Positions 6,701 to 50,933 of a DNA stretch of 64,000 nt are shown here, piece by piece (positions within the stretch are counted from its first letter, which is position 1; each line of letters opens with the position of its first letter). A program made the translations under genes and the position numbers. The notes under the pieces were generated by a model, which was not told the DNA's origin, made no database searches, and saw nothing but the letters and a program-made list of their open reading frames with translations. The stretch comes from Nemertoderma westbladi (Eukaryota; Animalia; Xenacoelomorpha), in NCBI GenBank assembly GCA_032718475.1, contig JAUCBJ010004814.1:9498-73497 (forward strand). Reading direction: 5' to 3'.

Positions 6701-7832
6701 TCGCCTCACGTTCCTTACGTTCCGCCTCACGCTCTTTGCATTCCTTTTCCTCTCTCGCCCCACGCTCCTTGCGTTCCTTCTCCTCTCTCACCTCACGCTC
6801 CCTGTGTTCCGCCACACGCTCCTCTTGTTCCTTTCTCTCTATTTCCTCACACTCCCTAAGGATTTTCACGGCCCTTTCGGCCCTCTCTCCTGTTTTTCTA
6901 ATCAGCACCATTTCCTTCTCCAGCAGCATTCTCCCCTCCTCTAACCGTCTATCTACCTCCCTCTGACCTTGCACTATCAGGTCGAGATGGTACGTGGCAT
7001 TTATCTCTCTCACCCGTCTTTCTTTTACGGAGGATGTAGCAGACTTATCGGTTGTGACGGATTCCCTCCGCCCTCCCATCCTACTAATTTCCCCCCTCCT
7101 CCCGGAACTCCCTCCGACCGACGAGGCCGAATCCTCGGGGTTAACCTCGGATTCGCCCTCCTCAGGTCTCCTCCAGCCCACAAATTTTATACCCTGGGCA
7201 TCGACCAAGTATGGCCCTATGTACACTACATTAGGTTGCATACCCCTACACCACCATAAGTCACACAGTTCCTCAGCAACCCCTCTCGCTCTCTCCTTGG
7301 CCAGTTCTCTCTGCCCGAAGCGCATCAGATAATTAAAATGTATATTCGACTCACCTAGTCGTTTCCTCAGTCTCACCTCGTCTATCTTCGCCCCCTCCTT
7401 GGCCTCCTTTAGTAGTTTCCGGGTCGCGTTGTAGGCCCGTCGAAGTTGATCAGAAACCCCGACGTCCTCGTCGCCAACCTCTCTTCCGTCTCTCCGGGTC
7501 CGACGTCGTACCGGCGGCCCCACCGTCGCCGTTCCGGTGGGCCGTCCGTCGCCCTCGGCCTGTGGCGGGCCGGCGACATCGGTACGTTGACCGTCGTCGT
7601 GTGTCGACTTGTCTCCTTCTCCTTCCAACTCACCCTCTCGGTCTCTCAACTCGACTCCCCCTCCTCTCGACTCGACCTCTGGCTCCAGACGGCCCCCCTC
7701 ATCCTGAGCTGCCGGATGACCCGTTACCGATGGGTCCGGCGTCGTGGGCCTGTACCATCTGGTCGCGGCCTCACGGATCGTTAGTTCTTCGTCCGGGGTC
7801 CGCGTCGGTGTCGTCTCTCCCGACTGACTCAT
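3740..7832 (-). pseudogene. gag: long gag, broken into ORFs 6654-7832, 6353-6763, 5433-6326, 4963-5295, 4519-4866, 3740-4630
   Basis: 3740-4630 has KFDGS..EYLQF...LKYLQVYTGG...ALDREYG (DUF1759-like); upstream pieces are E/R coiled-coil, N-rich and repetitive, colinear with element B 39765-43000; joining them into one ORF is inference. Confidence 0.75.
5593..5962. repeat. 60-bp coding tandem repeat, about 6 copies (20-aa unit VAGLSQPGMGLVGHVVSRPE)
   Basis: Successive 60-nt lines nearly identical. Confidence 0.95.
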
Positions 7833-7900
7833 CTCTCTTCTATAGATTGGTGGCTGGTAGTTACTGAGTTCAACTAGGGCGGCAGCTCTTTTTCAATTAC

Positions 7901-8440
7901 TGTGACGGGATCCAGGAAGGATCCCGGTTTATCCGGTTTGTCAGTTCACGCGTCCCCGCCGTGTGTGAAAGATAAAAGAGTTTGCGTTGTTCGTTGTATG
8001 TAATATTGGGATATATAATACAGATATAGATAATGGTGGACAAAAGTTATTATTGTATATGGAAGGTGGGAGATGGTAATTGAAGTCCCAGTACTTCCCT
8101 AGCTAAACTATTTCTACTGTAACACCAATAATACTGAGATAACTGAATGAGATGATTACTGCCAACTGGTTATATTGCACGGGTTGGCCTTGTTGCTCTA
8201 CCTAGCCGATGCCTTTCCCCCCTCTGATTGGTTGATACCCTTGTTGGCGCCCTTTGGAGTGTTCCCGTTCACTCCACCTATTCTCTCTCGGTTAGGGGTT
8301 TGGCCCCTGACCCTCATTGTGTTTCTCCTTCCCATTTTGTTGGGGTGACACGAGTTATTGGTTGCCCAATCTCGTGGCCCCCAATATTGCTTATCGGCTT
8401 ACTTTGTGGGTTTGGGTTAGCGGGATTGAATAAGCTAACA
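7901..8440 (-). repeat. 5' LTR of element A (540 bp)
   Basis: TGT...ACA ends; both ends align with LTRs at 36505-37173 and 43051-43699; TATAA and TCAGTT (initiator-like) on minus strand near 8170 and 8144. Confidence 0.8.
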
Positions 8441-18146: not shown

Positions 18147-19057
18147 TTAAGCCAAAGCAACGCAAGGTGAAGGGATGTCCACGACGCATAAAGGAACCCG
18201 CACCATTTCGCCCATGCCCATTTGGAAAGCATGACCCGATTGCCTGAGAGCGCTTTACGCGCGTAAGACCTTAGATCCGGGGAAAGTGTGACGCCATCCT
18301 GGGACGCTGTAAAGTGTAAGAGCAAAATACTTTAGATTCAGACAGAAACCCCTCGGTTAACCTGTATCTCTTACAGGTGCAAGCCGATGCTGTTTGCTAG
18401 TACGTGCGAGTACACTAGGTGCAAATATCACACTCTATAATTTGGTGACATTGCCATACTAGCGGTACAGCACTGTAGGCCTTGCGGCTTTCAGTGCGTA
18501 TAATTTATGTGCGTACTGTAATCAGTAGGAGGTACTGATATTAAATTAGATAATATCAGTAAACTTACATAATTTAGTTTAGTTTTTGTATTTGACTAGC
18601 TATAGTTAGTTAGTTTGTAACTTATTTTGTCTTAGATCTTTATCTTGTCTTCGAGTCATTGCATCATACGCATCACCGCATTGGCTAGGCTACTGAAAGG
18701 CTGTGAAGGAAGCAGAAAGGCCGAAGGCTGGTGAACTGAGTTTATAGATATAGTTGTTGGTAATATCAGATATAAATCACAATCAGTGTAATATAATAAT
18801 AGCAGTAACAATGACAGCGACGACGGTTAAAAACCGTCTGACTTCTACACTCATTGTAGCCAACTGAAGCACAATTAACAGAGTAACGGTTATATATTAC
18901 ATGGGATACACATTCCTACCTAGGTTTAGCCTACCAGTGAATGTGCGATAATTGATGGAAAGCCGCTCTATCATTGGTTGATCTATTCCCCAGCCAATCC
19001 CTATTTTTCACTGGACCTATGCTAGCTTCCCCCTGAGATGAGCTATTGTGCTGGCAT

Positions 19058-20238
19058 TGTAAAGGCTTTTGCGGAATTAGCTGGTTATTTTCCCCGCAAA
19101 GTACTCTGTAGTTGTTTTAACGGACATAAAAAGCCGTTTCCTTACTGTACCGGTGTTTTAGTGGACATAAAAGTCATTTCTTATGTATGTGTACTTTAGC
19201 GGACATAACTAGTGATTTTATGTCGCAATAAGCCAAATACTCTAAACATCGGAACTCCGATGACGACATCTATCAGCTGTGTCCACGTGTAACTTTTCTT
19301 TGTTCTTTGTTCGTTCTTTGTTCGGTCGACCAATCAGAGCGGTTTTCACTCTGTGTTGGAGATTGTATACAGAAACTCATGCAATTCAGTCAGTGTGTGT
19401 ATCTTTCTAAGCCCATAACACCGGCTTAGGATTCTTCTGTACTTCTGTGGAAGTTTCAGACTTTAGCAAAACATTAGTAGGCTTTGGTCATAGAAACGTA
19501 TAACTGTTATCAAACCACACCGCACCACATATCCTAATCATATTGTCAACTATAAACACCACATTTTTACTGCTATTTACTGTCGGTTATTAATTATATC
19601 AGTTGATGGAATATTGTTATATTTGGATAATATCGATAAATAATCATAAAACCCCCAATCTTCTTGATATACTGAAGGTAAGAGACCGGTTACATATAAC
19701 AATTGCGACTTACATTAAAGTGGTTTTGGAGTGAATCTAATGCTATTTCATAGGCACTACATGAGTCGGTTGCTGTTCTCTTTATATGTGACTAAAATTA
19801 GTGAAGGTTGGCAGATCGGTGTGCAGCATTGTGCGGTAGTGTGCATGATTGTGACTGATAACAAAGCATCTCCTAAAGAATGCGCTTTATACGTGAACCA
19901 ATAGCCATCCCGTTGTGTCTAGTGTAAGTCATAACTCTGTTTACATACTTAGAGCGCCACGTCCTAAAGGAACTGTTAATATTTCCCGAAAGTGAATAAT
20001 ATTGGTTAGAGATTATATATTAACAATCAGTCGAATAATACAGTAGGCCTACACCGCAATAAGGTCAAAGCTTCCGAATCCAGTCTCCCGGGTATATCCA
20101 GCGGGTGAATGGTCGCGCATAGACAGGCTTCGGCTAATGTAGTGTATCAAATACTCGTCATAGGCTAAAGTCGATTTATAATCTAGAAGACATCTAAATT
20201 TGGCAGGTTAAACTGCTAAAGGTCTGAAAGCGCGAACA
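19058..20238 (+). repeat. 5' LTR of element C (1181 bp)
   Basis: TGT...ACA; about 15 substitutions and one 15-bp indel versus the 3' LTR by eye. Confidence 0.97.
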
Positions 20239-20524
20239 ATAACAGTTATTGAGTTCTAATTGCAGTGTAGGCAATAAATACAGTCTAAAGTACCGGTTGA
20301 CCGGTACCCAGTAGGCCTAACTACCTAACTACCCGAACCGGTACTTACAGCAGTACAGGTACAGCAGTATTATTCGATTTTGATAATTATATACCGGTAG
20401 GTCTTAATAAGTAATCGGGGACGCCTGGTTTTTATTGAGATTTTACTTAGGCCTATTTCTGTCAGTTTTATTTATTTGAAAGTTAATATTGAGTAGAAGA
20501 CGTGTAAGCCTGCTCAGATTGTAC

Positions 20525-21104
20525 AGATAATTTGTAGGCTGGACTGTTGTCTGACTGTTGTTAAGTCTAAAGAGATTGTAGTGTGTGTAGAGTGTATGTC
20601 CGATAAAGTACTAGTTAGGAACGTAGGGGCTTCCAGTGCTGTGAGGTTAATCCCCCTGAAAGAATAAGTCGTACTACTCGGTTAGAACGCATACTAACTA
20701 ACCATTTCGGAGTCTGCATATACTGTAGTTTGTTTGGGCTTGATAGTAGTCTGCCAGCGTTTGGTCTGTATTTTGTTTGTGTAGTCTGTACGGGTAGCGT
20801 AATATTTCTTATTTAGATAATTTGTAGGCTGGATTGTTGCCTGGATGTTGTTAGGTCTGAAGAGATTGCGGTATGTGTAGAGTGTATGTCCGATAAATTA
20901 CTAGTTAGGAACGTAGGGGCTTCCAGTGCTGTGAGGTAAATCCCCCTGAAAGAATAAGTCGTACTACTCGGTTAGAACGCATACTAACTAACCATTTCGG
21001 AGTCTACATATACTGTAGTTTGTTTGGGCTTGATAGTAGTCTGCCAGCGTTTGGTCTGTATTTTATTTGAGTAGTCTGTACGCGTAGCGTAATATTTATT
21101 ATTC
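20525..21104. repeat. 290-bp tandem duplication in the leader of element C
   Basis: agataatttgtaggctgg starts at 20525 and 20815 with near-identical continuation. Confidence 0.9.
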
Positions 21105-21600: not shown

Positions 21601-23170
21601 TACTACTACTACTAGGTCGAGCGAACTCGGACAGTGGAAATGAGATCCTTCCAGGCTTCCCGATTCTCCATAGTTGTCGCAATTTCGTTTCTCCCAAGTT
21701 CAGTATCCCTTTCAAGTTGATCTATATATGTTATGGCAGGTCGTCCACGACTACGCTTTCCATGAGTTGGTTGCCAGAGAAGTAGATCTGGTATGACCTC
21801 GTCTTTACTTCGCCAGCAGTGCCCACTGAATCTTAATCTGCGTTCGCGGAGGGTGGTTGATACAGGTGGTACTGTACCATAAAGCTCGGCGTTTGTCATG
21901 TGTTGTCTCCAGCTGATGTTTAGGGCTGCCCTTAGTAGTCTTGTGTAGCAACCATCAATTCATTGTTCAAGTGATTTAGTCAGTGTCCAGGTCTCACCCC
22001 CGTATAAAAATACACTTTCCACTGTGGCTCAAAAGAACTTAGTCTACAGGTGCCTGGAGAGATCTGATTTCCAGATGGCATCCATTTTTGATAGAGCTAC
22101 CCAAGCCTTTGCTTTCCTAACTTCTATGTCCTTTTTGCTACTCTCTATCCATGATCCAAGGTACTGGAAGTCATCGACCTTCCTTAGTTGATTATTATCA
22201 ATGGTTGTCAAGTTTCCATCAACATTAAAGGTCATGAATTCGGTCTTGGTAGCATTTATATGCAATCCAACCTCCTTAGCAGCCCTCTCCACTTTATTTA
22301 GTAGAAGCTGTGCATCTGCTAGCGTATTAGAGAGCAGGGCGATGTCATCCGCAAAGTCAGTGTCTGTGACTGTAGTTGCCGGATATCTACTACTTTTGCG
22401 TTCTTGAAGTGTGAATCCCAGATCTTCACCCTTTGTGGCCATCCTCATTGCGTAATCCAGCACAATTACAAATAGTAATGGTGCTAATGTGTCACCTTGC
22501 AGTACGCCAGCAAGGATTGAGAAAAACTCAGTTTCACCATCTGGTGAGAGTACCTGCGCTTCTGTGTCACAATATAGCAATCCAATGCCAGCAACAATTA
22601 CTTCTGGTATTCCATAAGCTCTTAGGATTTCAAGCATTTTACCTCTATGGATGGAGTCGAATACCTTCTTGAAGTCCACAAAAGTCATGACTGCGGGGAG
22701 ATTCTTTGACTTAATTCCTTCAATCAGTCTCCGTAGTGCAAGTATCTGAGCTATTGTTGATCTACTTGGTCGAAATCCGTTTTGGCTCTTACGCAGTAGT
22801 TTCTCTATGTGAGGCCTAATCCTATATAGAATCATTTTATTGTATATTTTGGCAGCTACCACAAGCAGACAGATCCCACGATAGTTTGTTGTTATGCCGA
22901 GGTCTCCTTACTTGGGGAGAGGCTTTAGTTGACCTTTAGTCCAAATTGGTGGTGGCTTTTCCCCTTTTAACATCCGGTTGCAAACATTCAATAATGGTCT
23001 ATTTAGCACTCCGGTTTTCCATACCTCCGCTGGGATTTCATCTAATCCACTCGCTTTATTATTGGACATGCTTTTAATGCTTCTTTGGAGTTCGGCAGGT
23101 GTGAAGTCCCCTGTTTCTATAGGTAGTGTCTTGTCATATATTTTCCTTGTTGGGCTGACCTCGATGATTG
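21601..23170 (-). mobile_element. 5'-truncated RTE LINE inserted in element C
   Basis: Q.GFR, FVDFKK.FDS, GVLQGDTLAP, FADD; (TAG)n tail at 21601; same family as 11409-12269; TSD not clear. Confidence 0.93.
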
Positions 23171-31010: not shown

Positions 31011-32741
31011 CTCTCCGGAAACTATGGAAGGCAAGATACTCTTCCCACGACCACCTCCCTAATCCAACAAACATCTAGGGACTCCCCAACGTAACAGCGT
31101 CTGGAGTGGGTGTGTGACTATATTATTTTATATTTGTTTTTATTATTTTATATTTATGTATGTATTATTATGTAATTTTATTATAATCGTTTTCTTTAAT
31201 TTTATTTAGTAGAATGTTATTTTAGCAATTATCTAGTAGATTAGTGCAATATATATTCGCGTTTATTACTTAATTACTTATATATTATATATTTAGTGCG
31301 ACGGCGAGAAATAATTCTTTTTCTCTTTCCTTACTGTCCGTATCATATTATAAATACGTGACTACAGTAAGATGAAATGTCCGTACTTATTAAAGTACAA
31401 TAAAGCTCCTACTATATTCAAGTATTATTAGTAAGTAGAGTATTAGGAATGCAAAGTTCAGATCCTCGTGTCTCGGCTAAACCAATCTCTGGGTAGACCT
31501 TGGAAACGACTTGCCTCTTCTCACTGACATTGCTTCTTGCGATATTGCTCTCATACCGTATATTAAATAATACATATAGTAGCGTGATGTCCCTTTAACA
31601 GTAGCGTAAAACACAAAAATAAATCTGTTGAACCCTTTGACCATCTGTAATTCTAGTCGATTAAGATATCGCGGCACCCACCGATATACTTGAAAGACAA
31701 AATTCTAGAATCAGTGGTTAATGTCCCCAGACATGTTCTGGAATAAACCGGTGCCCATCTTAAATATTAATTATTAATATTTATAAAATCTGTCAAATTT
31801 TATATCCTTTAAAATTCTAGTCTATTAAGATATCGTAGCACTTACCGATATTCTTAAAAAGACCATTTTCCTAGAATCAAGGATCCCAGTCCCCAGACAT
31901 GTTCTGGAATAAAATTGTGTCTATTTTAATATTAAATGATAAAATTTACGGGAATAAATTTAAATTCATATCTTTTAATGAATTTGATAAATTGTCATTT
32001 TTATGCAATTTATAACATTCCCAAAATTCCATTAATTAAGAGATCATGGGAGCGGAGATTCACCTTATTAAGTGTATTAGTGTGCGAGAATCTCCAATAT
32101 ATAGTCAATAGCCGATAAAATTCATAAAATCATGTATAAAGAGGAATATTGACAATTAAAGAATTACTATTAAATAGCATCCCAGATCTGTATGCATGAG
32201 AATTACCCTAATTCTACTGCTAGCTTTCCATAATGTCACCATGGCAACAACCACGCTAGAATTAGAAGTGAGTTAAAAGAACAATAAAGGCTTGCCCTAT
32301 TGAATAGCATAAAGAATAAATAGCACACTGCTAGTATCCAAAGATACCCAATAATAACGTGACATTCTGGAAGGCACTTGACTAACGTACAAATCAAATG
32401 GCCCGAATGTGTGCGGTTTGTGACAGTTATGTGGAATTTGTGTGTTTATAGGTGGATGTTACTACTAAAGTGTGTTTATGGTAGCGAGTCGCAATTGTGA
32501 AAGTAGCCCTAACTCTCCAGTAAGAACCTGAAGTAAATCTAAGCCTTTGGGACGGACGGTGGAGTGACTCGCGCTGGTTGTTGTGGTCGTTGTGCAGCTA
32601 CTACATTGGCGATAGGCACATCGGCGAAAGTACACCAGCGCTGAGGATCTTGCGCTGTCCGGGGGCCGAGAGGGGTAGGCAGCGACGCCTGCTAGCCTAA
32701 TTATAAACTCATTATGATATTGATAAACTCATATAGCAGCT

Positions 32742-34248
32742 ATGACTGAGTTGATAGAAGATGATCTTGGTATCAGGGAGCGATATACTCTACCTTTACA
32801 AGCGTTTGTCGATAGCTTGATACGCGGCGATGCTAGTCCAACTACTACGGAGGACGATGGTCGTTATATCGAACCGCCAATGTCCCAGGAGCAACTTACG
32901 CGTGAATTGGACTATAGAAAATTCACCGCTCGCTATACGCATCGTAATGGTACGTATATGGACTTCTTAACTACTGGCCATCCTATCGATTTACACGATA
33001 CGGATGATGTAGACACCGAAAGGGAAATGGTTTTATTTAAATATCATACCCAGCGGAGTCGGAACGATAAACCAAGAATCGAATGTGAAAATTCTATTCA
33101 AAATCGAATCGAAAGAGAAGACGTTAAAGAACCGGATAAACGCGGTAACTCCAACGTATATTTGGAATTCTTGAGAGAAACATTGTAAAACCGAATAAAT
33201 ATCACCCGCGTTTCCCCTACAAGACGTGCGTCTTTGGTATTATTGCAATGAATGCCCAAGACCCAACCAACAAATGGAAAGACATAAACATCCGTAGAGA
33301 CGTTGCTTTAAACACGGTTTTACTCGCTATATTTACGGGAGTTTCGAGCGAAACTTGTTCGATGTATCACCTACGCTCATTCGATTCAAACGATCCTTAA
33401 ATAAACCTATGATCAGAGTTCCGGAATACTCGGTCAGACCTCCTCATTCCCTAGTTAGACTTCAGACTCTTGATCCTAATAGTGTTACCCGAACAATTAG
33501 TCGGTGGCACTCCGGTTGTGGGCTTCCTCAATATTCGCCCATCTTACCTAGCCGGATTGGGACGCGGACATCTAATATCATCATTCAACCGTATCATCGT
33601 ACCGGTTTAACCCGATACAACCTGTCACCAAGGCGGAGGAGAGAGTTGTACGAAACGTGTTGGACACTATTCTTCAAAAGATCGGAAAAGGAACCTACAA
33701 TTGTTTAGAGAAACGTAAATTGCAGCAACAAGTCCAAGCGGTAAACGAATTAGCTTTATCTCAGTTCGATCAGGAAATCCAGAATCTCTAAGAAGATATC
33801 GAACTTGGACGGCTCTACTTTCTGCAAGCGTTTGGACAAATGTTTTCAACGACAAGCGGAGGAAAATCAGCTCGAGGAGAAGCATATCGATTCCGATAGA
33901 GCCCGAGAACGCGAGTTGGAAAGAATCATCAAACCGAGGAAATTTCTCACTATACACGGTCCACCTACCGCTATCGTTCAGACGACCCGTCAGGGACCAG
34001 TAAGAGCTGCTGTCTCAAAACGCGCTCTCAAGGTTGTTCGACCTCGTTCCACTGAGGTTGATACCGATCAACCAGGTACCTCGACTGGCGGATACACCGA
34101 CCGTAACCCTAAACCTTCTGATGCAATTGTATTGCACCCTTCACCCAAGGGTTATAGCCCTCCTAGTAAAGTGGCTCGCCCCAAAGAGAAAAGGACTCTT
34201 GCTAGCCTCAAAAAACTGCGTAAACGCCGTCCGCGCAAGAAAAACTAA
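32742..34248 (+). pseudogene. accessory ORF(s) between pol and 3' LTR of element C, unknown function
   Basis: Three colinear ORFs 32742-33188, 33355-33708, 33805-34248; basic C-terminus KKLRKRRPRKKN. Confidence 0.55.
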
Positions 34249-34326
34249 CTGTTTAGAGTATTTTTATATTTTAGAAACTGTGATTTTTTATATTTTATAG
34301 AATTAAATCCCATTTTCTGGGAGTGG

Positions 34327-35522
34327 TGTAAAGGCTTTTGCGGAATTAGCTGGTTATTTTCCCCGCAAAGTACTCTGTAGTTGTTTTAACGGACATAAAA
34401 AGCCGTTTCCTTACTGTACCGGTGTTTTAGTGGACATAAAAGCCATTTCTTCTGTATGTGTACTTTAGCGGACATAACTAGCGATTTTATGTCGCAATAA
34501 GCCAAATACTCTAAACATCGGAACTCCGATGACGACATCTATCAGCTGTGTCCACGTGTAACTTTTCTTTGTTCTTTGTTCGTTCTTTGTTCGGTCGACC
34601 AATCAGAGCGGTTTTCACTCTGTGTTGGAGATTGTATACAGAAACTTATGCAATTCAGTCAGTGTGTGTATCTTTCTAAGCCCATAACACCAGCTTAGGA
34701 TTTTTCTGTACTTCTGTGGAAGTTTCAGACTTTAGCAAAACATTAGTAGGCTTTGGTCATAGAAACGTATAACTGTTATCAAACCACACTGCACCACATA
34801 TCCTAATCCTATCAATGCAAATCATATTGTCAACTATAAACACCGCATTTTTACTGCTATTTACTGTCGGTTATTAATTATATCAGTTGATGGAATATTG
34901 TTATATTTGGATAATATTGATAAATAATCATAAAACCCCCAATCTTCTTGATATACTGAAGGTAAGAGACCGGTTACATATAACAATTGCGACTTACATT
35001 AAAGTGGTTTTGGAGTGAATCTAATGCTATTTCATAGGCACTACATGAGTCGGTTGCTGTTCTCTTTATATGTGACTAAAATTAGTGAAGGTCGGCAGAT
35101 CGGTGTGCAGCATTGTGCGGTAGTGTGCATGATTGTGACTGATAACAAAGCATCTCCTAAAGAATGCGCTTTATACGTGAACCAATAGCCATCCCGTTGT
35201 GTCTAGTGTAAGTCATAACTCTGTTTACATACTTAGAGCGCCACGTCCTAAAGGAACTTTTAATATCTCCCGAAAGTGAATAATATTGGTCAAAGATTAT
35301 ATATTAACAATCAGTCGAATAATACAGTAGGCCTACACCGCAATAAGGTCAAAGCTTCCGAATCCAGTCTCCCGGGTATATCCAGCGGGTGAATGGTCGC
35401 GCATAGACTGGCTTCGGCTAATGTAGTGTATCAAATACTCGTCATAGGCTAAAGTCGATTTATAATCTAGAAGACATCTAAATTTGGCAGGTTAAACTGC
35501 TAAAGGTCTGAAAGCGCGAACA
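34327..35522 (+). repeat. 3' LTR of element C (1196 bp)
   Basis: Direct repeat of 19058-20238, preceded by GGGAGTGG. Confidence 0.97.
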
Positions 35523-35769
35523 GGCATCTCTCTCCAGCAGGCTATGTATATTTTCTTGGTACTTTAGTATGCGATATTATATTGGTAATATCGCATATCC
35601 AATCATGATTCGTAAATCATGCGAATTGGAGTGCGCTCCAAATCCACGGAAATTCAATCTAATACTGGATGTGGGGTGGAATTTTTTTCTTGGGGCAAGT
35701 TTTGCGGACTGGCCCGCCCTCTGGGTCTGTTCTCACTATCCACCCTTGGTACATCTGCGAGCTAAGTTG

Positions 35770-36504
35770 TACTGAGGTATCTGGCATCTCTGTTTAGACT
35801 ATCTCCCTTCTTCCTCTCTCGATTTTCTTTTGGGTATTATTGTCCAATCTCTTCACTACCTCGCTTCTTTAGTCCCATAGGACTCATCCACTGCTCAGCT
35901 CTCCACCCTACACATGAATCTTGCGCCCTTCAACTTTCCCCAAACTCTCGCACATCCTCACCATATTCTTCTCATACTCAACTCAACCCCATATTATTCT
36001 CACACTCTACACTCCTGTCAGGTCTCACATATGTGTACACCATGTAATTGAGTCCCGTGATTGTCTCATCCTCTTGTTTCAATCAATTAGTCCCCAGTCC
36101 CAGTAGCTAATTGGAAAAGGTTATATCTGACTATAGTACATATGTGGTGGTTTTACGCTACGATTGAATACTTTATATCTTATTTATATTGTTTATAATT
36201 AGGGCGGGAATATTTTACTTTAGTCTACAATTCCGGCGCTGCCTTCCAGGCATCCTGATACTTTCTCGTCATTAAATGATGTCAGCGAACCACATCCTGA
36301 GTGTCAGTCTAGGATTTTATCCCGTCCTTCCAGTTCATCGTAGTTCATCTCTTTTATCCTTGTCCTGGCTTGGATGCTCCCTGCCATCCCATTTGTTCTT
36401 AGTTGCGGATGTATGGCTTTACTAATCCCTATTATCTGTTCCCTGAGCATGGTTGTTACCGTCTCTTGATAACTCTTCGCTGGTGGTCCCATCAAGTGTC
36501 CCTC
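35770..36504 (-). mobile_element. 3' internal fragment of a relative of element B
   Basis: Shares tccccagtcccagtagcta, gccttccaggcatcc and ggtgg.ccc...ccctc with 37430-38115. Confidence 0.65.
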
Positions 36505-37173
36505 TGTGATGGGATCAAGGATCCCGACTGGACTGTTATAGTACGCGTCACCGTTCCTGCTTGGGGATCGTGCTAATCAGCTTTGGCCGAGGCTGTAGGG
36601 GAAAAACAATAAGAGTTTGCTGTCGTCTTTCGGTATTAATAAATACATGCGGTGATAGCACAATGTTAATAGTAAAGCAGAAATACAGATAATATTGACT
36701 GATGAATAGTTTCCAGTATGGCGGTGTCGTCCAATAACTATAACCGATCTGTCCTAAACTGAATAACACAACTGATGCACTAATCTAACAACCTGAGATA
36801 ATATATGATTGATACATTGAATATTGCTTCACCTCTTACACTACTTTGGCATTCTACCCAATGGATGCTTTCCTGTTCCCTATCACGTGCTTCCCTTCCC
36901 TCTATTGGCTAACATACTACTTGCCACCTTGGCGCTCTCTGGGAGTGTTTCCCCTCCGCTGCTAGCCTCTACTAGCCATATTCCCTCCGAGGTGGTTTGA
37001 CCTCTAACCTCTCTTTCTATGTGGCTTCGGGGCTTGTGTTGCCCCCCCCCCCCCCCCCAATGTTGATTATGATACGAGATTGATATTGGTAATCTCGTAT
37101 CTCCAACATATTGCTGAAAATGCCACTAGTCACATTTTCTGGTGGGTAATGAAGTGAAATGAATCTGCTTACA
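36505..37173 (-). repeat. 3' LTR of element B
   Basis: TGT...ACA; preceded on minus strand by a G-run plus AG (polypurine tract). Confidence 0.88.
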
Positions 37174-37869: not shown

Positions 37870-39750
37870 GCCTTCCAGGCATCCCCACATCTCCCCCTCC
37901 GAGTCCTAGTTCGCTCCTCCTGTCTTCAGGAACCATCTCAGTTCCTTCCCTCTATCATCGTCCTGTCTGGGTCGCTTCCTTCCCTCTGGCTTGTCCTCTT
38001 TGAGACTCCTCATTCTCGCCGTTACCGCCTTGCTAATTCCCGTGGTTGATTCCTTGGGCGCTGGTGTTACTAGCTCCCGATAACGCTTTGCAGGTGGCCC
38101 TTCTGAATGCCCCTCCTGCTTCCCCCTGGTAGCGTCCCACAAGATCATCTTCATGGTTCGCTGCACGTGCTCCACCAGAAAGTCTCTAATCTCTCCTCTA
38201 TCCTCCGGCGTCCATCTATCCAAATACCTCCGCATGTTGATAACTCATCCATACGATGCCATCGTCGCTACCTCTTGGTATGTAAATGGAAGTAAGTCTC
38301 CTCTTAATAATTTCCAGATGGGCCTCCTGATTGATGTTGAAGAAACCCCACCGGAACTCCTGGGCCTTCATTCACTGTCGCGTCATAACACCAACGTCGG
38401 CCCACTCCTCGAAGATCTTAAACTTCTCCTCGTCGTCCATACAGTCGCACTGGCGCCCATAGTGCCCTCGGAAGTTTCAATTTGAGCAGCGGTTGTGCAA
38501 CCTCGGACACGCTCCCATCCTGTGGCTCGACTCGCGGCAGTAGAAGCAGCTCGTCCCCTTCTGGAATCGATACAAATAGCTCTTTTCCTGGTGAGTCAGT
38601 CTCCTGCAGTAATCACAGTCTTTTGCCCCAAGCGGTCTCCTATGTCTGTGGAGCAGTTGGTAAGCAAACTTCTGGACGTTAACGTGCCTGTCCATGTCTA
38701 CATCCTCGGCTCGCCTCGGCATTGTCTCTCCAAACACTACCCTTGGTGCCATTCCTGGTTGCTCGCCCAACCTGATGGTGCTCCCCGCAAAATCCATCAC
38801 AGGCTCCTCGTGCACCCAGGTCCGCTTGCTGGGTTTATCCCAGAAGGCCCTCACCCTGCTGGCCATCACCACTCTCCCACCAACTCAGTCCGTATCTGAG
38901 TGGCCAATCCTCTTGATGGGCGGCATCTCCCCGAACTCGTTGTCATCCTCCTCCCCCGCTGGGACTGGGTCCAGGCCCGGTATCCCGGCAGACCCACTGT
39001 GTCCCTTCCCACCTTGGCTTTTGCCCATAACTTTCCATCCATGACTCTGGATGGCACATTCACAAGAATGCTACGCTGGGTTCATTGTGTCAAGTACAAT
39101 GCACACATCTCCAACCAGACACTATATAACATTGGAGGTGTCTCATTGTTTCCCCCAAGCTTGACACTAGAACAAAATAGCCTCCGCTTTGCAGGACATT
39201 GCTTTCGCCATGAGGTCAAGTCAGTGCATAATCTTGTACTTTGGCAGCCTCATGGAGTGAATAAACATGGTGGACAGCCCATGACTTTCTTGAGACGCAT
39301 CTTAAAAGACACTGGCCTTGAAGATGCGGATGATCTAGCAAATGTCATGGGTGATAGGGAGTTGTGGCAGTGCAATTTTTTTGACAAGCCGGCACAGCAT
39401 TCTTAAAAATGCAGCTGCAATGCAGCATGCCGATCCTAGTAGTAGTAGTTCCATCCTTCCTGTTCTCTCGGTCTCTTCCTCGCGAAATCGCCCTCAGAGC
39501 CCGCTGGCATGGGCATTGCTTGCAATCCTGATGTCAACTGTTTTGGCGATTCTTCTGTAAATCCTAGCTCCTCCCCCAGAAACTCGCCCGAGCTCCCTGA
39601 TCCCCACCTCAGCTCGTCCAAGTTCTGGGCCTCAAACCCATAATCATCTCCCCTAGCCTCCGCCTCTCTTTTGTCTGCCTCCCTCCTTTCTCATCTAGCA
39701 ACTTCTTCCAGTCGATTTTCCTCAAGTCTATCCGCTTCCAGCTTCTCCCA
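37870..39750 (-). pseudogene. 3' accessory ORF with acidic N-part and three zinc-knuckle-like motifs (split by RTE insert)
   Basis: CDYCRRLTHQEKSY, CFYCRESSHRMGAC, CSN*NFRGHYGRQC then FEEWADVGVMTRQ*...WGFFNIN. Confidence 0.7.
39041..39448 (+). mobile_element. 5'-truncated RTE LINE, second family
   Basis: LDGTFTRMLR, LRFAGHCFR, LVLWQP; (TAG)4 tail; TSD ttccatcc at 39033-39040 and 39449-39456. Confidence 0.9.
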
Positions 39751-39764
39751 CTAACTCTATCAGC

Positions 39765-42700
39765 TTCTCTGATATGGTGTATCCAACTCCCTGTCTACTA
39801 GATGCTGGCAGTTGTAGTACACCGACTCGCCATCTTGAGCGTCTTGAGCGCATCGATAAGTGTTGCCATACACATCGCCTGTGCTTCCAATGGGTTCGAC
39901 GGATGCTGTACAGACTCTTCTGTTGGGTGCGGTTCGCCCGTCGGGCCTGTTGATTTTTTCTGTGTGGGATATATCATTGGGGGTAACGGCCCCCTCCATA
40001 TATCCGTGTCGCACGATCTGTTCTAGTCCAGGGGGTTCAATGTTCTTGTCCTCGGTTGAGTATATTGCTGATATTGTAATTTGGGAATGTCACCCCCCCC
40101 CCCCCACCACACCGGTGTTGTGTTTGGTACTGGGGTTGATGTTAATATATTGAGGCCCATACACCTATCGGCAATAACTCCCCCCTCCCCTGGGTATATG
40201 TTATATCCCTGCATAATATAGTCATACTGGTGTGCAGGTACCGGTATAGGCCTATCCACTTACTGGCTACCTACCGGTATGTACGCCGCGGCTTCCGGAT
40301 CTAATCCCGTTGTTTGCGCTACCCTATTGCCTACACTATCTCTTCCAGCATGGCCTATAGTATGTGCAGTAAGACCTACAGTATGTCCTGCAGTCTGCCT
40401 GTGTCCTTCCGGACCGAAGTTTAATCTTCTCGAATATTCCAAGAAGTCCTCCCCACGACCACCGTACTCTCGATCGGCAGCTACATCCCGTTGGGAAGTT
40501 TCTCTTCGATCCCCTCTCCTGTCCTCGTCCTCATGCCGGTACACCTATATACGGCATACCTTCTCCCGGTGTATAGTATATCTCGCCAGGCTGCGTCTCT
40601 CCAGGGCGACGGCAATCTCCTGGAGTTCGACCCCACTGACTCTCTAACTCCATCTCTACTACCGACGGTTCGCTGTCCGTTCTCACTCTCCGGTTGCCCG
40701 CAGCAACACTTCTTCTATTCTCTTCACTTCTTCTCTCTTCAGTGTAGCGTTCCCACTCATGAGATCTCTCTTTGACTTCCCGGTTAAACTCCACTGTTCT
40801 TCTTCCATTTTCCGACTGGGCTCGACGTCTTGTTGCTCGCCCGCTCATGACGCCAACCTCTCTCACTCTAGCAGGTTGGATGCTGCTGGGGATATTCGCA
40901 ATCCCCCTACTATTCCCCGTCGTCGTGTGCTGTGGTTCACCTAACTCGCCCCGCATATTATCCTCCGATGCTTGTGGGGCATTCTCTGCCCCCCCCCCCC
41001 CCCCACTCACCACCTATTACTTCACTACCTCCTACGACCTCCTCGACGCCCTATCTCTACTGCGGCTGGGTCTATTCACCCCTGCCTCTCCCTCTATCAC
41101 TGCGTGCGTGGCCTTGCAGGCTTCCGTCGGGTTGACTCACCACCACTCCTCCCTGCCTAACTACGTGGCCTTGCAGGCTCCCATCAGGGTGACTCACCCC
41201 TGCTACTCCCTGCGTACTAACTACGTGGCCTTGCAGGCTCTCGCTGGTCGGACCACCTACGTTTGCTGCGTTCGTATGAATAGCACCGTCATCAACAATA
41301 TTACCGTCTAAATAATTTGGATTATTTAAATTATTTTGTTCGGAATTCGGATTATTATTTAAATTATTTTGTATATTTAAATTAGAATTATTTGAATTAC
41401 TTTGCATATTTAAATTAAGATTATTTGGATTATTTTGTATATTTGAATTTAAATTATTATTTGAAATATTTTGTGCGTTTAAATTAGGGTTATTATTTTG
41501 TATATTTAAATTAGAATTATTATTTTGTATATTTAAATCAGGATTATTTGGATTTAAATTATTATTACCAGGTAAATTATTTCCTGCAATGAAAGTTTGA
41601 TTAGGGTTGTCTACTACGGTACTATTAATATTAATGCCTTCTAACGTATTATTATTACCCCCCCCCCCCCTTCCATCCCGCCCGTACAGTTACACCAGTC
41701 TTGGGTCTGTCGTTTGGTGCCTGTAAGTGGGGTATTAACAAATGTCTCCATTACTTCTGGCTCCTCGTAAATACTACCCGAGCCAGCCCCACTCTCAGAT
41801 AGTCCCAACTGCGCCAGTTCTAATCGGCGCTTTTGCTTAGCTTGATATTGCATTTTCCCCTTAACTGGGCATGCATATCATCCCGCATACGTTTCCCCGC
41901 TCTCTCTCTCTCTCTCTATCCTCTCGCAGACATTGGTCGGCCAACTCTGCCTCCCTCGCCTCCTGCTCTCTATGCTCATTCTCTACTTTCGCCTCTCGCT
42001 CTCTACGCCCATTCTCTACTTTCGCCTCCCGCTCCTCACGCTCTCTAAATTTTCTCTCAACCCTCTCAGCCCTCTCTTTTTTCTCTCTCGCCAGCTCTCT
42101 CTCTCTCTTTCTCTAATAGTGTGGTTCCCTCATCCAGCTGCCTCTCCAACTCTTTCTGGTCTAGCACCACTATGTCTAGTTGACACGCCAGATCTATCTT
42201 AAACACCCTTCTTGTTTTTGCGGAGGATGTAGCGGACTTATCGTTTGCGACGGACTCCCATCACCTCTCTGTCCTACTAACTTTTCCCCGCTTTCTGGGG
42301 TTCTCGCTAACTGACAAGACCGAATCCTCGGGGTTAACCTCGGGTTCGCCCTCGTGCGGATCCGCCCAACCCACTAACTTAATTCCTATAGCATCCACTA
42401 AGTACGGCCCTACATACACTACTTCAGGCTCCATAACCCCGGATCGCCACAGTTCGAATAGTTCGGTGGTGACTCCCACTCACTCTCTCACTCGCCAGTT
42501 CTCCATGTCCAAAGCGGACTAAATACCAGAAATGTTCGTTAGACTCACCTAGCCTTTGGTGTAATTTAGGCTGGTCTACCGTTCCTCCCTCTCTGGCCTC
42601 CCTCAGTAGTTTCTTGGTGGCTTGTAGGCCCGTCGTAGCCGATTTCTCGTCCCGACGTCCTCTTCACCGATATCTCCTCCTCCTCTTCTCGTTCGGCGTC

Positions 42701-43000
42701 GTACCGGCGGCCCCACTGTCACCATTCCGGTGGGCCGTCCATCGCCCTCGGCATGTGGCTGGCCGGCAACTTCGGTATTCCGACCGCCGTTGTGCATCGA
42801 CTCGTCCCTGTATCTTTCATCCGTCATGGTTGACGGCTGCCCTCTGCTTGGGGTACCGGATCATCCCTCGTCAGCGAATCCGGCTTCGCAGGTCAATACC
42901 GTCTCGTCGCGGCCTCGCGGATTGTTTGGTTGGTGTCATCCGGGGTCCGCGGCGGCATCCTCTCTCCCTCTGATAATCGGGGTTCCCCTTGGCTCATCTT
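39765..43000 (-). pseudogene. gag: degraded gag N-terminal region of element B
   Basis: Homologous to 4070-7832 (YVGPYLVDA.GIK.VGW, EVNPEDS, TFVNTPLTG, N-rich block, GHTVGLTAHTIGHA). Confidence 0.85.
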
Positions 43001-43050
43001 TACTTTACTTTACTGCAGTCACAGTTTAGTAGTTTTAGGCAGTTGTTTAC

Positions 43051-43699
43051 TGTGGCGGGATCGAAGATCCCAACCGGGTTGATGTTTTAGGCATCACCGC
43101 TCTACCACAGGGATGCTGGGATGGTGCTAAATAACTTGGCTGAGGCCGTTGCAGGAAAACAATGAGAGTCCGGTGTTGTCTCTTTGATATCATAAAATAA
43201 CAATAGCACAAAAACTCGTGGTAGAAGTACAGATATGATGTGTACCGTTATGTTGTATCAGTAAACGATGATGGTAAACAACTGATACCAGTCTGCACTA
43301 ACTGAGAAATTAACTAAACTGAGTCACAAACTGGTAGCAGGAGATAATATATGATTGATATACCAATATTGCCACACACCTACGCTACCTTGGCCTGTTA
43401 CCTAACGAATGCTCTCCTTTACCCTAATCTCCCACTTGTCACCCTTTCACCCTCTGGGAGTGTTTCCCCCCTGCTGCTAGCCTCTACTAGCTGTGTCCCC
43501 TCCGAGGTGGTTTGACTTCTAACCTTCCTTTGTGTGTGGCTTCGGGGTTTGTACAGCCCCCCCCCCCCCCCCCCCCCCCCCGAATGTTGGTTGTGATACG
43601 AGATTAATATTCCTAATCTCGTATCTCCAACATATTGCTCAAAAAATGCCACTGCCCTATTTTGTGGTGGGTAAGCAAGCGGAGTTGAATCCGCTTACA
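43051..43699 (-). repeat. 5' LTR of element B
   Basis: TGT...ACA; homologous to 36505-37173 and 7901-8440. Confidence 0.88.
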
Positions 43700-43819
43700 A
43701 TGTCGGCCAGTAATTTCTTTCACGGTGGAAAATCAGTTCAATCAATTTAAAATATAAATTGGGGAAGATAGTAAAATTGAGCATGGCTTAAAATAATATA
43801 TTACATAAATATAATAAAT

Positions 43820-46800
43820 ATAAGTATAGTTGAGAGTTGGAGTAAGGTTTATTCAATGGGAGAGTCAGCAGGACAGTTCCGATAGAGGAGGGCTGAGGAG
43901 GCAGTCCATAGCATGTTAGCGGTTCCTGCAAGGTCCATCGCAGAACTGACAGATACAGCTGTCTGAGAACTCGTGGAATGGGGTTGGGGTGCGACAGAGT
44001 ATGTGATGGAACCCATGAGCCGTTGTCCTGGTAACAAGCGATCTGTTCCTTTGACCAGGCCATTTCCATACGGATGTGGAAAAAGCCGGTCCGCGTAGAA
44101 AACCCTGAGCTTGGAAATTGGCGATTCGTTCGCGACGGTGATCTTTATAAAGTTCTAGAACATCGCTATCGAAAGTTTCTGTTGACCTGGAGTATATATC
44201 TACAACAAATGAGTTCTTACCAACGAGTTTCATAGCTAATGTCGATGATGCCGATATATGTTTCCCTAACATACGCTTTATGAAGGTGGATTTGATTTTA
44301 TCAATTTCTAGCAGATGTGATAATTTCAGATAAGGAGCCATTTCATTCATAGAGTATGTTGCCATAGGTGATATTTTCGATTTGAATATCTCAATTGCAG
44401 TTTCAACAGAGAGGAGATGTAATAGATTAAGTGATCCTATGATACCGTATGATTTTTTCTTTTTGGATTCCATATGTTGTGTGAAGCATAATGATGGCTG
44501 TAATGTAACAAATAGGTATTCATAAGAGTTGGTAATACTGACTTTGTTGCCTCCATAGATAAACTGGTCAGCGTCACATAATTTCCCACCGTTTCAGAAT
44601 TTTAGAATTTTGGTTTTAACTAAGTTTACCTCCATACCATTTTCGATACACCAGGTATATAAAACATTGAGTCCGCGTTGTATATCATTTCTGTTACTGG
44701 AGTAGAATACCAGGTCATCCGCATAGAAAATAAATTTTAGGCAGGATACTAATTGGCGTAGTGCATCTGCTAGATCGGAGATAAATATGATAAAACATGT
44801 AGGCGAGAACGTATCTCCTTGCAGAACTCCTCTTAGTTGCTGTATAATACCAGATAGACTGAGTCCGTCGTAGATACGAATTTGGTTGTGTAGTAAGGCC
44901 CTCACTATATTATATAGCTTCCCCTTTATCCCATGTAGATATAATTTCTGGAGTAGCTTCGCACGGCTCACGAAATCAAAGGCCTCACAAAAATCCACAA
45001 ATGCGGCATATGTTACTCGGTTGTGGGGTGTGTTTGCTTTGAAAGAGTTTGCTATGTCTGAAAGGAGGATTTTGATGGCCTGGGCCGTGGACTTTCCATG
45101 GATGAAACCATATTGCTCTGGTGGGAATTGTCTGGATACGTACTGTCGGACACAGTTATTTATTAGTTTTGTGAAGGTTTTTAAGAGAACACTGAGGAGT
45201 GCAATGCCGTGGTAGTTGTCGGGATTGTTTTCTGAACCTTTTCCCTTGTAAAGTATTATTATAATGCTTTCTAGCCAGGTCGTGGGTAGCTTCGCAACAT
45301 GTAAGCACATATCAATGTGAGTAGAACAAGGATATAAGGTATTGACTGTTTAATGTGCTCATAGTATATTCTGTCTGGTCTGCAGGCCTTTCTGTTTGCA
45401 GCATCGTTAACAGCCGCTCGGACTTCCTCATGGTTCGTTATACCATTCACCATTGTTGCACTCTGTTTCAGCCATGGTGGGTATTTCTCCGCAGTTAGGT
45501 GGGTTGTTGTCGCAACCGAGTAGGTTCTGGAAATTGGATTCCAGATGTTGAGCGGGAATGGGTGCAATGGAAAGTGTATAATCTTTAAATAGGGACCATG
45601 GTGTGATTTCCGCCTGTTTTATCTTTTTAAGTATTGCCTCGTTCTCGTATGTTTCTCTTTTGGACTTGATGAGTTTTTTATATTGTTTACGGGTATTCCA
45701 ATAATATTGAGGTATACCCGTAGTGCTGTATGTGTGCATAGAATCCAATAAGTTCGCCTTCACAATTCTGCACTCATCATCAAACCACGGTTTATGATGT
45801 TTCCTTTTATTTTGTTTCAAAGCTTCAGCGGAGTCTATAATTAGCTTAGTTAGCTTAGTAGTTGCCTAATCAACGTCTTTAAATTTCAAAAGATTATCAA
45901 TTATGACAGTAATTTCACCATATTGATCAAGTTTGCAAATATCTATTTTCCGGTTTAGGGGGGGGGGGGGGGGGGGTGGCCTTTTTAGTATGGCTTGGTG
46001 TGGATTTTCTCGGGAAGTATTAGTCATTGAGATACTCTGGTGCTTTCTAATTGGTTTATATAAAACGTCGATCTGAGGTGGCTCTGTTGGAAGGGGGGTG
46101 GGATACTTGATATAGAATAAATCGATGGTGCTGTTACCCTGGGGCGATATACAGGATATGTGTGGATATCCACCGAGTTTAGAAGAATAAACCCGAGGTT
46201 CTGTAGGTGGTCCGTTAGATCCGTGCCACGATTCCATGCATCAAGCCGACAGTTAAAGTCGCCACCAATAGTTATCGCGATGTTTTTATATGCCATTGTG
46301 AGAGCCTGATTCAGAGTCAGGATAACCTCTTCGATAGGTACATCAAGAGGAAAGTAAAATACGATGTAGTATGACTGCTTCGTTTCCACAATAATAAACT
46401 TAGTAGATTTATTGATTAGTTCTGGTTTTAGTTGGGGTTTGCATAAAATGATTAAACCGCCTTGGGGCCGTCCTCTCTGTGGTTTTACTGCGGGTTGCGA
46501 GTACATGTAGCAGCCGGGGAAGGGTTTATGGTCAGGGGGGTCTGTCACTACCAAAGTTTTAGTTAGCATTACAACATCGCAGTTATCTAGGAGTTCCGAT
46601 CCGTTTCCGTTTATGGTTATGTAGTTCAGCCCTTCCACATTCCACATAGATACCTTTGTGTGTCAGATCTAGGCAGGGTTCGGAGATGCACGTGCGCCTT
46701 GAGCAGGGTTTCATCTACGGAGACCAAACGTCTCTCGTTCCTCATCGGTTAGCGAATAATTCCTAATCATGGTCCCTTCCGGCCACACTGCGGGGTCCAT

Positions 46801-47400: not shown

Positions 47401-49188
47401 TTGGATATCACTCATTAATTTGTTTGTTTTGTTTTGCAGGCAGATGTCGCGCAATTAGTCTGACACCGAGAGACACAGAAAAGACCAGCAAAACCTTTAC
47501 CCTATTAAACCCGGGGGGGGGGGGTCAATATGACCCTTTCGTGGATTTTTATTATACTTCTGAAACAAACGCAGTTGTGAATCTGAAATTTTATGACTTT
47601 TCCTAAAAATCGATTGTCTTCCTAGTAGTGAAAACCGTTTTCAAAAATATTTGGTAGTTTTCGAGTTATAGCACCTTTTTTTAACCCTACTTTTGGCACT
47701 TTTTTGAGACGTTTTTTGAAAATTACATTTGATTAAATATTAATTGTAACACCTCTATTTTTGATTTACACCGGTTTTTTGGTGTTAGCAATTGGATGGA
47801 ATTCATATAAATTGATTTAGAAATTTCAAACTTGTTTTTTTCGGCGGGTGCCAAATTTTGGTGCCAGCACCAAATTTTGAAATATTTCAATTTTGTAAAT
47901 TGATTATTTGAAACTTGTTTTTTCCGCAATTGGTGTTTTTTGGGGTTCTGGTTTCGATGAAATATATACGAGTTGCACCAAACGTATCAAACTTGTATTT
48001 TTCGGTGCTGTGTGCAAATTTTGGTGCTAGCACGAAATTTTGAAAATCCATTCAATAGATAAAATTGCTTGTGACAATTTATTTCTTGCATTTTAAAGGT
48101 TTATGGCTGTTCTGAATTCAATGGAATATATAATTATCAAACTAGACATCTCAAACTTGTATTTTTCGGAAGTGGGTGCAAAATTTGGTGCTAGCACCAA
48201 ATTTTGAAAACCACCAAATCTGTCAATTGATTGTGTCATCTTGTTTCTTGCGTTATACGGGTTTGTTAGGGTTCTGAATTCAATGGAATCAGTAAAAATT
48301 TCATAAGAGTTTTCAAACTTGTATTTTTCGCTGGTGGGTGAAAATTGTTGTTTTGCACCAAATTTTTGAAAATGAGTAAATTGATCAGTAGATAGTATCA
48401 TCTTGTTTCTTGCGTTATACGGGTTTATGAGGGTCCTGAATCCAATGGAAATAATTAAAACAGCACTGGACATCGCAAACTTGTACTTTTTGGTGATGGG
48501 TACGAAATTTGGTGCTACCCTGCAAACCACCAACGTTAATCTAACGTTGGGTTTATGTTAGACATTCGTTAAAAAATGACAGTTAGAATTTAACCATAAA
48601 CCTACGTTAAAATACGTTAGAATTCTGTCAATTTTTAACGTTAATTTTTTACAGTAATTATACGTCAAAAATTTACAAATATCGGACAATACCATATTTT
48701 TTAACGTTACTTTAACGTTAATTTTTAACGTTAATTTTTTACAGTAATTATACGTTAAAAATCAACAGAGATCTGACATTTACAAATTTTTTAACGTTGA
48801 TTTAACGTTAATTTTTAACGTTCATTATTAACGTTAATTTAGCATTAAAATACATCAGATTTTAACGATGATTAGTGAATCACTTAACTGATTCATCAAT
48901 GGATAACATATCTATGTCTAGCTGACCATCCGCTGACTTTGTTCATTTCTTATTTTGTTAAATTTTTATGTTACTTGTGTAATTTTTTAAATATTATTTT
49001 TAAATATTTGCCTTACTAGTCAGCATCTGTGTACCAGTACCAAGCGTACAGTATAAAAGTACAGTAAGTAAGCGTACGGTAGAAAAAGGGTGGAAAGAAG
49101 GATCTAGAAGATGCTAGTGGGGCTGTAGCCGATAGCGAAGATGAATGAATATTATATATCGATACAAACTTGGCCCTAATTACGTTAC

Positions 49189-50420
49189 GGATAACTTTAT
49201 GAAACTGGATGTACGTTTCGGTTAACTTTATGAAAGTGGATGTACGTTTCGGTTAACTTTATGAAACTGGATGTATGTTTCGGTTAACTTTATGAAACTG
49301 GATGTACGTTTCGGTTAACTTTATGAAACTGGATGTACGTTTCGATTAACTTTATGAAAGTGGATGTACGTTTCGGTTAACTTTATGAAACTGGATGTAC
49401 GTTTCGGTTAACTTTATGAAACTGGATGTACGTTTCGGTTAACGTTATGAAACTGGATGTACGTTTCGGTTAACTTTATGAAACTGGATGTACGTTTCGG
49501 TTAGCTTTATGAAACTGGATGTACGTTTCGGTTAACTTTATGAAACTGGATGTACGTTTCGGTTAACTTTATGAAACTGGATGTACGTTTCGGTTAACTT
49601 TATGAAACTGGATGTACGTTTCGGTTAACTTTATGAAACTGGATGTACGTTTCGGTTAACTTTATGAAACTGGATGTACGTTTCGGTTAACTTTATGAAA
49701 CTGGATGTACGTTTCGGTTAACTTTATGAAACTGGATGTACGTTTCGGTTTACTTTATGAAACTGGATGTACGTTTCGGTTAACTTTATGAAACTGGATG
49801 TACGTTTCGGTTAACTTTATGAAACTGGATGTACGTTTCGGTTAACTTTATGAAACTGGATGTACGTTTCGGTTAACTTTATGAAACTGGATGTACGTTT
49901 CGGTTAACTTTATGAAACTGGATGTACGTTTCGGTTAACTTTATGAAACTGGATGTACGTTTCGGTTAACTTTATGAAACTGGATGTACGTTTCGGTTAA
50001 CTTTATGAAACTGGATGTACGTTTCGGTTTACTTTATGAAACTGGATGTACGTTTCGGTTAACTTTATGAAACTGGATGTACGTTTCGGTTAACTTTATG
50101 AAACTGGATGTACGTTTCGGTTAACTTTATTAAAGTGGATATACGTTTCGGTTAACGTTATGAAAGTGGATGTTCGTTTCGGTTAACTTTATGAAACTGA
50201 ATGTACGTTTCGGTTAACTTTATGAAACTGGATGTACGTTTCGGTTAACTTTATGAAAGTGGATGTACGTTTCGGTTAACGTTATGAAAGTGGATGTACG
50301 TTTCGGTTAACTTTATGAAACTGGATGTACGTTTCGGTTAACTTTATGAAACTGGATGTACGTTTCGGTTAACTTTATGAAACTGGATGTACGTTTAGGT
50401 TAACTTTATGAAACGGATGA
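49189..50420. repeat. 31-bp tandem satellite, about 40 copies (GGTTAACTTTATGAAACTGGATGTACGTTTC)
   Basis: Direct inspection; homogeneous centre, diverged edges; no spacers. Confidence 0.98.
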
Positions 50421-50933
50421 GTCCGGTAGCAACCTACGGGTCTCTGAACTATAGATCTAAGCCTAGCCTCCCATTGATTAATAAAAATTCCACACATTTC
50501 CAATTCCGAATTCCAAAAATTTCACATTTCTAAAGCCTACTTTATAGTGTTATAGAAATTAAATTCAGAATTTCATACAAGAAAAAATCATACATAATTA
50601 TTGATTTTTTCATTGATCAATTACACGAGATTATGAATTTAAGCTTCTGGTTTTAACACTTGAATTTGTTCAAAATTACATTTCACTGTATGTAACTGGC
50701 AATTTGAAAATCTATCGTAATGTGATAATAACGTGTATTATATTAATATTATATCTAATACATAATTAAAATGTATACATAATTATTATATGTAATATTG
50801 ATTAATCATAAGTAATGTATTAATTGTGAGTTAATACAATATAATTTTGTCAATATTAAATGGCAAAGTTGTCTTCGGCCGTTAGGCCAGGGAAAACATT
50901 ACGCACAAAGTCTGACGACTTGTTTCCAGATAA

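Follow-up and report, generated by a model that had tools for sequence, protein, structure and literature searches.

A primer-binding position complementary to its own LTR suggests self-priming in a BEL/Pao retrotransposon lineage of Nemertoderma westbladi

In Tf1, the RNA's first 11 bases pair with the site of primer binding (PBS), and a cut by RNase H falls between bases 11 and 12, as described in the portion of PMC7175516 available to us. Self-priming has been described for Tf1/sushi, Tj1, Tcn1, and TAR/Houba elements in the accessible parts of PMC6317226 and PMC4600332. As at the locus analyzed here, Tf1 and Tf2 of Schizosaccharomyces pombe, Tj1, and the Tf1/sushi group have no tRNA-type PBS and carry a complement of about 11 nt in their own LTR (PMC7175516 and PMC4600332, each in the part available), although Tf1/sushi elements belong to Ty3/gypsy and the elements described here to BEL/Pao. 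Tcn1 (Ty3/gypsy) and TAR/Houba/Osr-1 (Ty1/copia) are plant lineages predicted to self-prime from an LTR complement of at least 10 nt to the sequence lying 0 to 5 nt after the LTR, the same criterion that we applied, but these belong to other superfamilies and hosts, and the accessible part of the source mentions no intron in the primers of Tcn1 and TAR/Houba/Osr-1 (PMC6317226).

BEL/Pao elements are presented in the ICTV profile of the Belpaoviridae as primed by host tRNA through an 18-nt PBS for tRNA-Arg or tRNA-Gly (PMC8742986). The terms PBS, primer binding, tRNA, and priming are absent from the available main text, supplements apart, of two BEL/Pao surveys (PMC554778 and PMC3118150), and the available parts of PMC3601003, PMC8220671, PMC3286476, and PMC11042837 contain nothing on this point. 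Our literature searches listed no paper on a self-priming BEL/Pao element or on a primer split by an intron, and an earlier note may exist, for example in subscription papers, Repbase Reports, or GyDB.

Element B and its primer-site match

The window, by which we mean the whole 64,000-nt stretch of N. westbladi DNA that was analyzed, is eukaryotic, repeat-rich DNA. Fragments of non-LTR (LINE-like) reverse transcriptase and endonuclease occur at 43916-46662 (minus strand), 21603-22907 (minus), and 11281-12270 (plus), and two of these copies (11409-12270 and 21603-22467) lie in opposite orientation and share 98% identity. A repeat family of approximately 162 nt recurs at 12270-12450, 17000-17600, and 47700-48520, and an array of a 31-nt unit occupies 49057-50600. 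Among the LTR elements of the window, element B has the following features:

43051..43699, minus strand: 5' LTR (TG...CA, 649 nt)
43040..43050, minus strand: PBS position, flush with the LTR end and without TGG, the exact complement of an LTR site
43274..43284, minus strand: LTR-internal 11-nt complement, predicted 3' end of a self-primer from the sequence match
39840..42990, minus strand: internal part, a fragmented 5' coding region resembling that of element A (49-87% amino acid identity in pieces)
36505..37173, minus strand: distal LTR, preceded by a purine tract and resembling the 5' LTR to only about 74%

On the minus strand, the LTR of element B (43699 to 43051) ends in ...GCCACA and is followed, with a spacer of 0 nt, by GTAAACAACTG (43050-43040). 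Within the LTR, 223 nt ahead of its end, we observed CAGTTGTTTAC at 43284-43274, followed by CAT. The original prediction of an 11-nt perfect match between the PBS position and an LTR-internal site was confirmed as an exact complement flush with the LTR end. Matches of at least 11 nt to the flush sequence arose in 4 of 20,000 dinucleotide shuffles of the LTR, which agrees with the further claim that a chance origin is unlikely. The proposed overlap of the site with a TCAGTT motif was found at 43285-43280, and two further TCAGTT motifs are present at 43322 and 43305.

We analyzed sister copies of element B as DNA contigs aligned to its LTR, for which 40 of 146 rows of variants were seen. Among these 40 rows, many variants surrounded the site and none fell within 43274-43284. 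One contig spanning both places, from a sister subfamily of B, carried a change in PBS letter 43042, which would still pair as G.U if the LTR site were unaltered. The CAT after the site, present in B as originally noted, did not prove to be general, since 43272 is changed in most of the sister-contig depth (CAT to CGT). Two positions of the helix that follows the site, 43272 and 43093, are changed in most of the sister depth (A-U to G-C, unphased); we did not count this as a clean compensatory change, because the depth values of the two contigs spanning both positions give G.U and A.C.

We found no pol in the internal part of element B, which, judged from its sequence, is a broken BEL/Pao LTR retrotransposon; its assignment to BEL/Pao follows from its similarity to element A. 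The LTR has TG...CA ends, the element has a purine tract, and the coding region stops early in a gag-like ORF. Because the two LTRs are only about 74% alike and no target-site duplication was found at the flanks, B is a defective and probably recombinant copy, and its own match may be a relic since the element is defective. The distal LTR has different letters at the site position. When the window was searched for exact matches to the PBS predicted from these letters, the search returned, besides the site itself, one match inside the gag of element A, which is within chance expectation.

An extra coding-like region, Cys/His-rich and broken, lies between the pol position and the 3' LTR of element B at 38400-38800 (minus). 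A fourth related element, E, persists as a remnant at 18620-19052 and 35523-36500 (minus) with an LTR-like part and is interrupted by element C. The distal LTR of element B abuts the other side of the E remnant, and the whole is a nest of BEL/Pao insertions.

Elements A and C and related BEL/Pao loci

The layout of element B recurs with other letters in two further elements of the window:

7892..8084, minus strand: element A PBS position (7900-7892) and 9-nt LTR complement (8084-8076); 70 of 20,000 shuffles as good
19500..20249, plus strand: element C LTR site (19500-19510) and PBS position (20239-20249), an 11-nt match; 26 of 20,000 shuffles as good

Elements A, B, and C have three different sequences at the PBS position, each flush with the LTR end and each complementary to the element's own LTR; the match in A is 9 nt only, and that in C is a near-palindrome. 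TGG, the complement of the tRNA CCA end, is absent at or just after the LTR end in all three elements. They likewise lack the 18-nt host-tRNA PBS of the Belpaoviridae profile, although they are BEL/Pao elements by their proteins. An LTR-complementary PBS position without a tRNA site, as in the Tf1/sushi group, is found in its place. Among other features, these elements share with Belpaoviridae LTRs of 0.65-1.2 kb, a purine tract ahead of the 3' LTR, and, in element A, a DUF1759 gag-like domain, protease, RT, and a Pao RNase H-region domain.

Element A, which extends on the minus strand from the window start to about 8450, contains DUF1759, aspartyl protease, RT (weak), and Peptidase_A17 domains, and its translated matches to related loci run beyond Peptidase_A17 to the window edge. 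Its domains fit the Pao-type gag and pol, for which the order is protease, RT, RNase H, and integrase, and its pol is not that of Ty3/gypsy (Metaviridae), to which the Tf1/sushi group belongs. Among the matches listed, the pol of element A was 31-39% identical to Pao-type proteins, the named ones being from marine invertebrates and fish, and PF05380 was present in all 120 of these listed matches. In element A, DUF1759 is preceded by roughly 3 kb of low-complexity coding sequence (4960-7890, minus) that holds 60-nt tandem repeats, gave no Pfam match, and is shared with B.

Element C also carries a DUF1759 ORF, and the gag proteins of A and C are only 24% identical. The LTRs of element C (19058-20238 and 34327-35522) are 97% alike and flanked by a 5-nt target-site duplication. 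We also observed in element C a 290-nt tandem duplication in the long 5' leader (20525-21104, plus), an extra coding-like region with short ORFs before the 3' LTR (32700-34250, plus), and a strong donor-like site in the long U5 at LTR position 621 (window 19678 onward, plus).

To place these elements among relatives, we scanned metagenomes with a pol alignment and kept 78 BEL/Pao loci. The test set comprised 27 non-redundant loci whose LTR-end junction had been located, and about 300 decoy PBSs served as the comparison for each; most of the junctions had been picked following an initial scan for matches of this kind, so the set is biased. Outside the 27, we examined separately L010, L028, and L064, which are near-duplicates of tested loci, and L019, whose junction is uncertain. 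No LTR-end junction was located in 44 of the loci.

Perfect complements of 11-15 nt appeared in 12 of the 27 loci only once a GT-AG intron in the LTR was removed (0-3 decoys as good). Contiguous matches were present in a further seven, at 11 nt in three loci (0-1 decoys as good) and at 8-9 nt in four (3-8 decoys as good); one of the latter, L008, reached 11 nt with a donor outside the strict pattern. The predicted introns, which split the PBS complement in L016, L037, L076, L013, L069, L061, L026, L047, L063, L032, L018, L042, and L008, are 76-426 nt long, beginning at a GT donor that is mostly GTAAG or GTATG and ending at a YAG acceptor rich in pyrimidines, and the TCAGT at the site in relatives is the predicted 3' splice site. 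Matches were missing in 8 of the 27 loci, namely, all 3 with TGG-type sites and L009, L022, L033, L041, and L068, whose junctions were picked by eye or whose LTRs were cut short. Contiguous comparison found no LTR match in L017, L021, and L054, which have guessed junctions and lie outside the 27. In the unbiased subset of 8 loci with the LTR end fixed by the LTR repeat, all 6 without TGG reached at least 11 nt, and both TGG loci were without a match.

The end of the paired helix lies 0 nt from the LTR end in A, B, and C and 0-4 nt from it in relatives. In several of the intron-bearing loci, 2-4 nt separate the LTR end from the paired PBS. L074, a close sister of L069, lacks precisely the intron predicted there and has a contiguous 11-mer, and it may be an RNA-derived or intron-less copy. 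From these comparisons, the paired stretch in many relatives would exist only after removal of a predicted spliceosomal intron, and A, B, and C have it ready-made. Element B itself looks intron-less. We rejected a splice-built primer for B, as no donor improves on the contiguous 11 nt and as pyrimidines make up only 40% of the 15 nt before the internal AG, compared with 47-93% (at least 67% in 12 of 13) among relatives that bear introns.

In a FastTree tree of 77 rows, from which L029 and L030 were omitted as repeats of L027, the matching loci were scattered across a 63-row clade plus L018, and the three TGG loci fell outside the clade. Element A was on a long, unsure branch, and we therefore claim no clade name, ancestry, or order of intron loss. 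We found no relatives in the viral contigs scanned.

Because the PBS letters differ among A, B, C, and the relatives and each is matched by its own LTR, this covariation gives self-priming good support and is difficult to reconcile with a host tRNA, and element B quite probably belongs to a lineage in which part of the element's own RNA serves as the primer for minus-strand DNA synthesis. BEL/Pao elements are described as host-tRNA-primed, yet most relatives that could be read are without a tRNA site and have a match of 9-15 letters to their own LTR, suggesting that the lineage is likely self-priming.

RNA start, leader folding, and a proposed mechanism

Five features of the element B leader bear on how its RNA may begin and fold:

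43344..43351, minus strand: TATA-like motif, placed 31 nt ahead of the A in the upstream TCAGTT
43317..43322, minus strand: upstream TCAGTT, an initiator-like motif with a predicted transcription start at 43320, from motif and spacing
43313..43321, minus strand: 9-nt stretch complementary to leader 43030-43022, a possible outer helix; at 212 of 1000 shuffles, not better than shuffles
43057..43071, minus strand: predicted U5 hairpin beside the LTR end, also in A and the distal LTR with different loops
43263..43273, minus strand: arm immediately 3' of the site, whose predicted pairing with U5 43092-43102 covers 11 bp including G.U (pair probability only about 0.4)

A TATA box lies at a characteristic spacing from the start of transcription. 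Of the three TCAGTT motifs in element B, only that at 43322-43317 has a TATA-like motif 31 nt upstream. Similar motifs lie 29-32 nt before the upstream TCAGTT in the 5' and distal LTRs of B and in A and E, with a looser spacing of 22-26 nt in C. Because of the TATA-like box before the TCAGTT at 43320, we favor this position over 43283 as the most likely start of element B transcription. The original prediction was that the self-primer would be the very 5' end of the RNA, as in Tf1; self-priming is well supported by the covariation, and the 5'-terminal primer is the less likely reading given the TATA-like motif.

The predicted pairing of the element B PBS varied with the assumed RNA start, with probabilities of 0.98-1.0 from the site (43283/43284), 0.55-0.79 from 43320/43322, and 0.15 from 43303. 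The stable predicted pairing from a start at the site counts in favor of a 5'-terminal primer. Corresponding values were 0.24 for A from its upstream start and 0.0 for unspliced C. A U5 intron in element C is speculative; in folding predictions, its removal would shorten the 728-nt gap and restore pairing in 2 of 8 candidate forms.

The leader of element B folds better than shuffles (z of -2.6 and -2.7). A U5 stem-loop is reportedly required in Tf1, and a U5 hairpin is likewise predicted here. The distal LTR, A, E, and C are predicted to form duplexes like that of 43263..43273 with U5. Across 14 relatives, the leader past the PBS pairs with the 14 nt lying upstream of the paired part better than cross-pairs do (mean of -6.5 versus -4.9 kcal/mol; 161 of 20,000 permutations). 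Within the window, this longer upstream pairing was significant in A (4 of 1000 shuffles) and not in B (212 of 1000) or C (594 of 1000). No Rfam match was found at 42800-43800, and a tRNA gene search of the window found none.

By analogy with Tf1, the complementarity, LTR-end register, and covariation that we observed would reflect a sequence of fold-back, cut, and extension. Transcription would start in the LTR, most likely at 43320, and fold-back of the RNA would bring 43284-43274 into pairing with the PBS position, beside the U5 hairpin. The RNA would then be cut just 3' of the paired stretch, between 43274 and 43273, probably by the RNase H of the element family as in Tf1, and reverse transcriptase, acting in trans for B, would extend the new 3' end straight into U5. 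We lean slightly toward a primer consisting of an approximately 47-nt 5' fragment from 43320, paired by its last 11 nt. A 10- to 11-nt 5'-terminal piece from a start at 43283 seems unlikely to be the primer.

This mechanism is likely Tf1-like in its working and BEL/Pao by membership. In contrast to Tf1, in which the first 11 bases pair, the paired stretch here is probably about 36 nt inside the RNA. The cut demonstrated in Tf1 is presumed here, and the predicted intron that splits the paired stretch in many relatives is a further difference from Tf1. It is an even call whether a large animal BEL/Pao branch has dropped tRNA priming and builds its primer via the host spliceosome. The intron would be removed from the 5' LTR copy and the 3' copy would remain unspliced so that progeny keep the intron, with A, B, and C being intron-less offshoots that have an internal paired end.

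Alternative explanations and implications for BEL/Pao elements

We considered whether the pairing could instead be structural, in that a leader fold for packaging, dimerization, or translation control hides the PBS and another host RNA or a protein primes. The helix does lie within a larger predicted fold with the U5 hairpin and flanking helices, but its end lines up with the LTR end, the place required for the 3' end of a primer, and the TGG-type relatives are without a match (0 of 3). In addition, no one host RNA fits PBS letters that vary from family to family, and we regard a purely structural role as improbable.

Priming by the RNA 3' end, in which the site would mark where the 3' LTR copy is cut for poly(A) addition and the end, once de-adenylated, would act as primer, would be consistent with the CA that follows the site in A, B, and C. 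However, of the 13 relatives checked, 11 have AATAAA or ATTAAA downstream of the site (at 5-30 nt in 8 and at 79-93 nt in 3) and 2 have none, and the LTR of element B has no such hexamer and shows the change of CAT to CGT in most of the sister depth, making this explanation very improbable. A host tRNA fragment or small RNA could also prime, the LTR match then being incidental, and half-tRNA priming does occur in Ty1/copia lineages (PMC6317226, in the part available). Such priming would demand a different host RNA for each of more than 10 PBS sequences, each of which would also occur by chance in its own LTR, often across a splice junction, and we give it hardly any credence. Last, scanning a whole window puts many short matches on offer, but a chance match in element B is the least credible explanation of all in view of the rarity of such matches among the LTR shuffles and the repetition of the pattern with other letters in A, C, and relatives.

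Self-priming with a piece of the element's own RNA is thus the reading that we prefer for this lineage. Element B in the window is a dead copy, and its value lies in the lineage-wide pattern. If true, self-priming would explain BEL/Pao elements without a recognizable PBS and would free them from the host tRNA supply and probably from tRNA-fragment silencing. A splice-built primer, if true, would couple the onset of reverse transcription to host splicing, and we did not find such a point of control described for LTR elements. The replication of BEL/Pao elements is poorly understood according to the ICTV profile (PMC8742986), and self-priming, if true, would make BEL/Pao the third LTR superfamily to use it.
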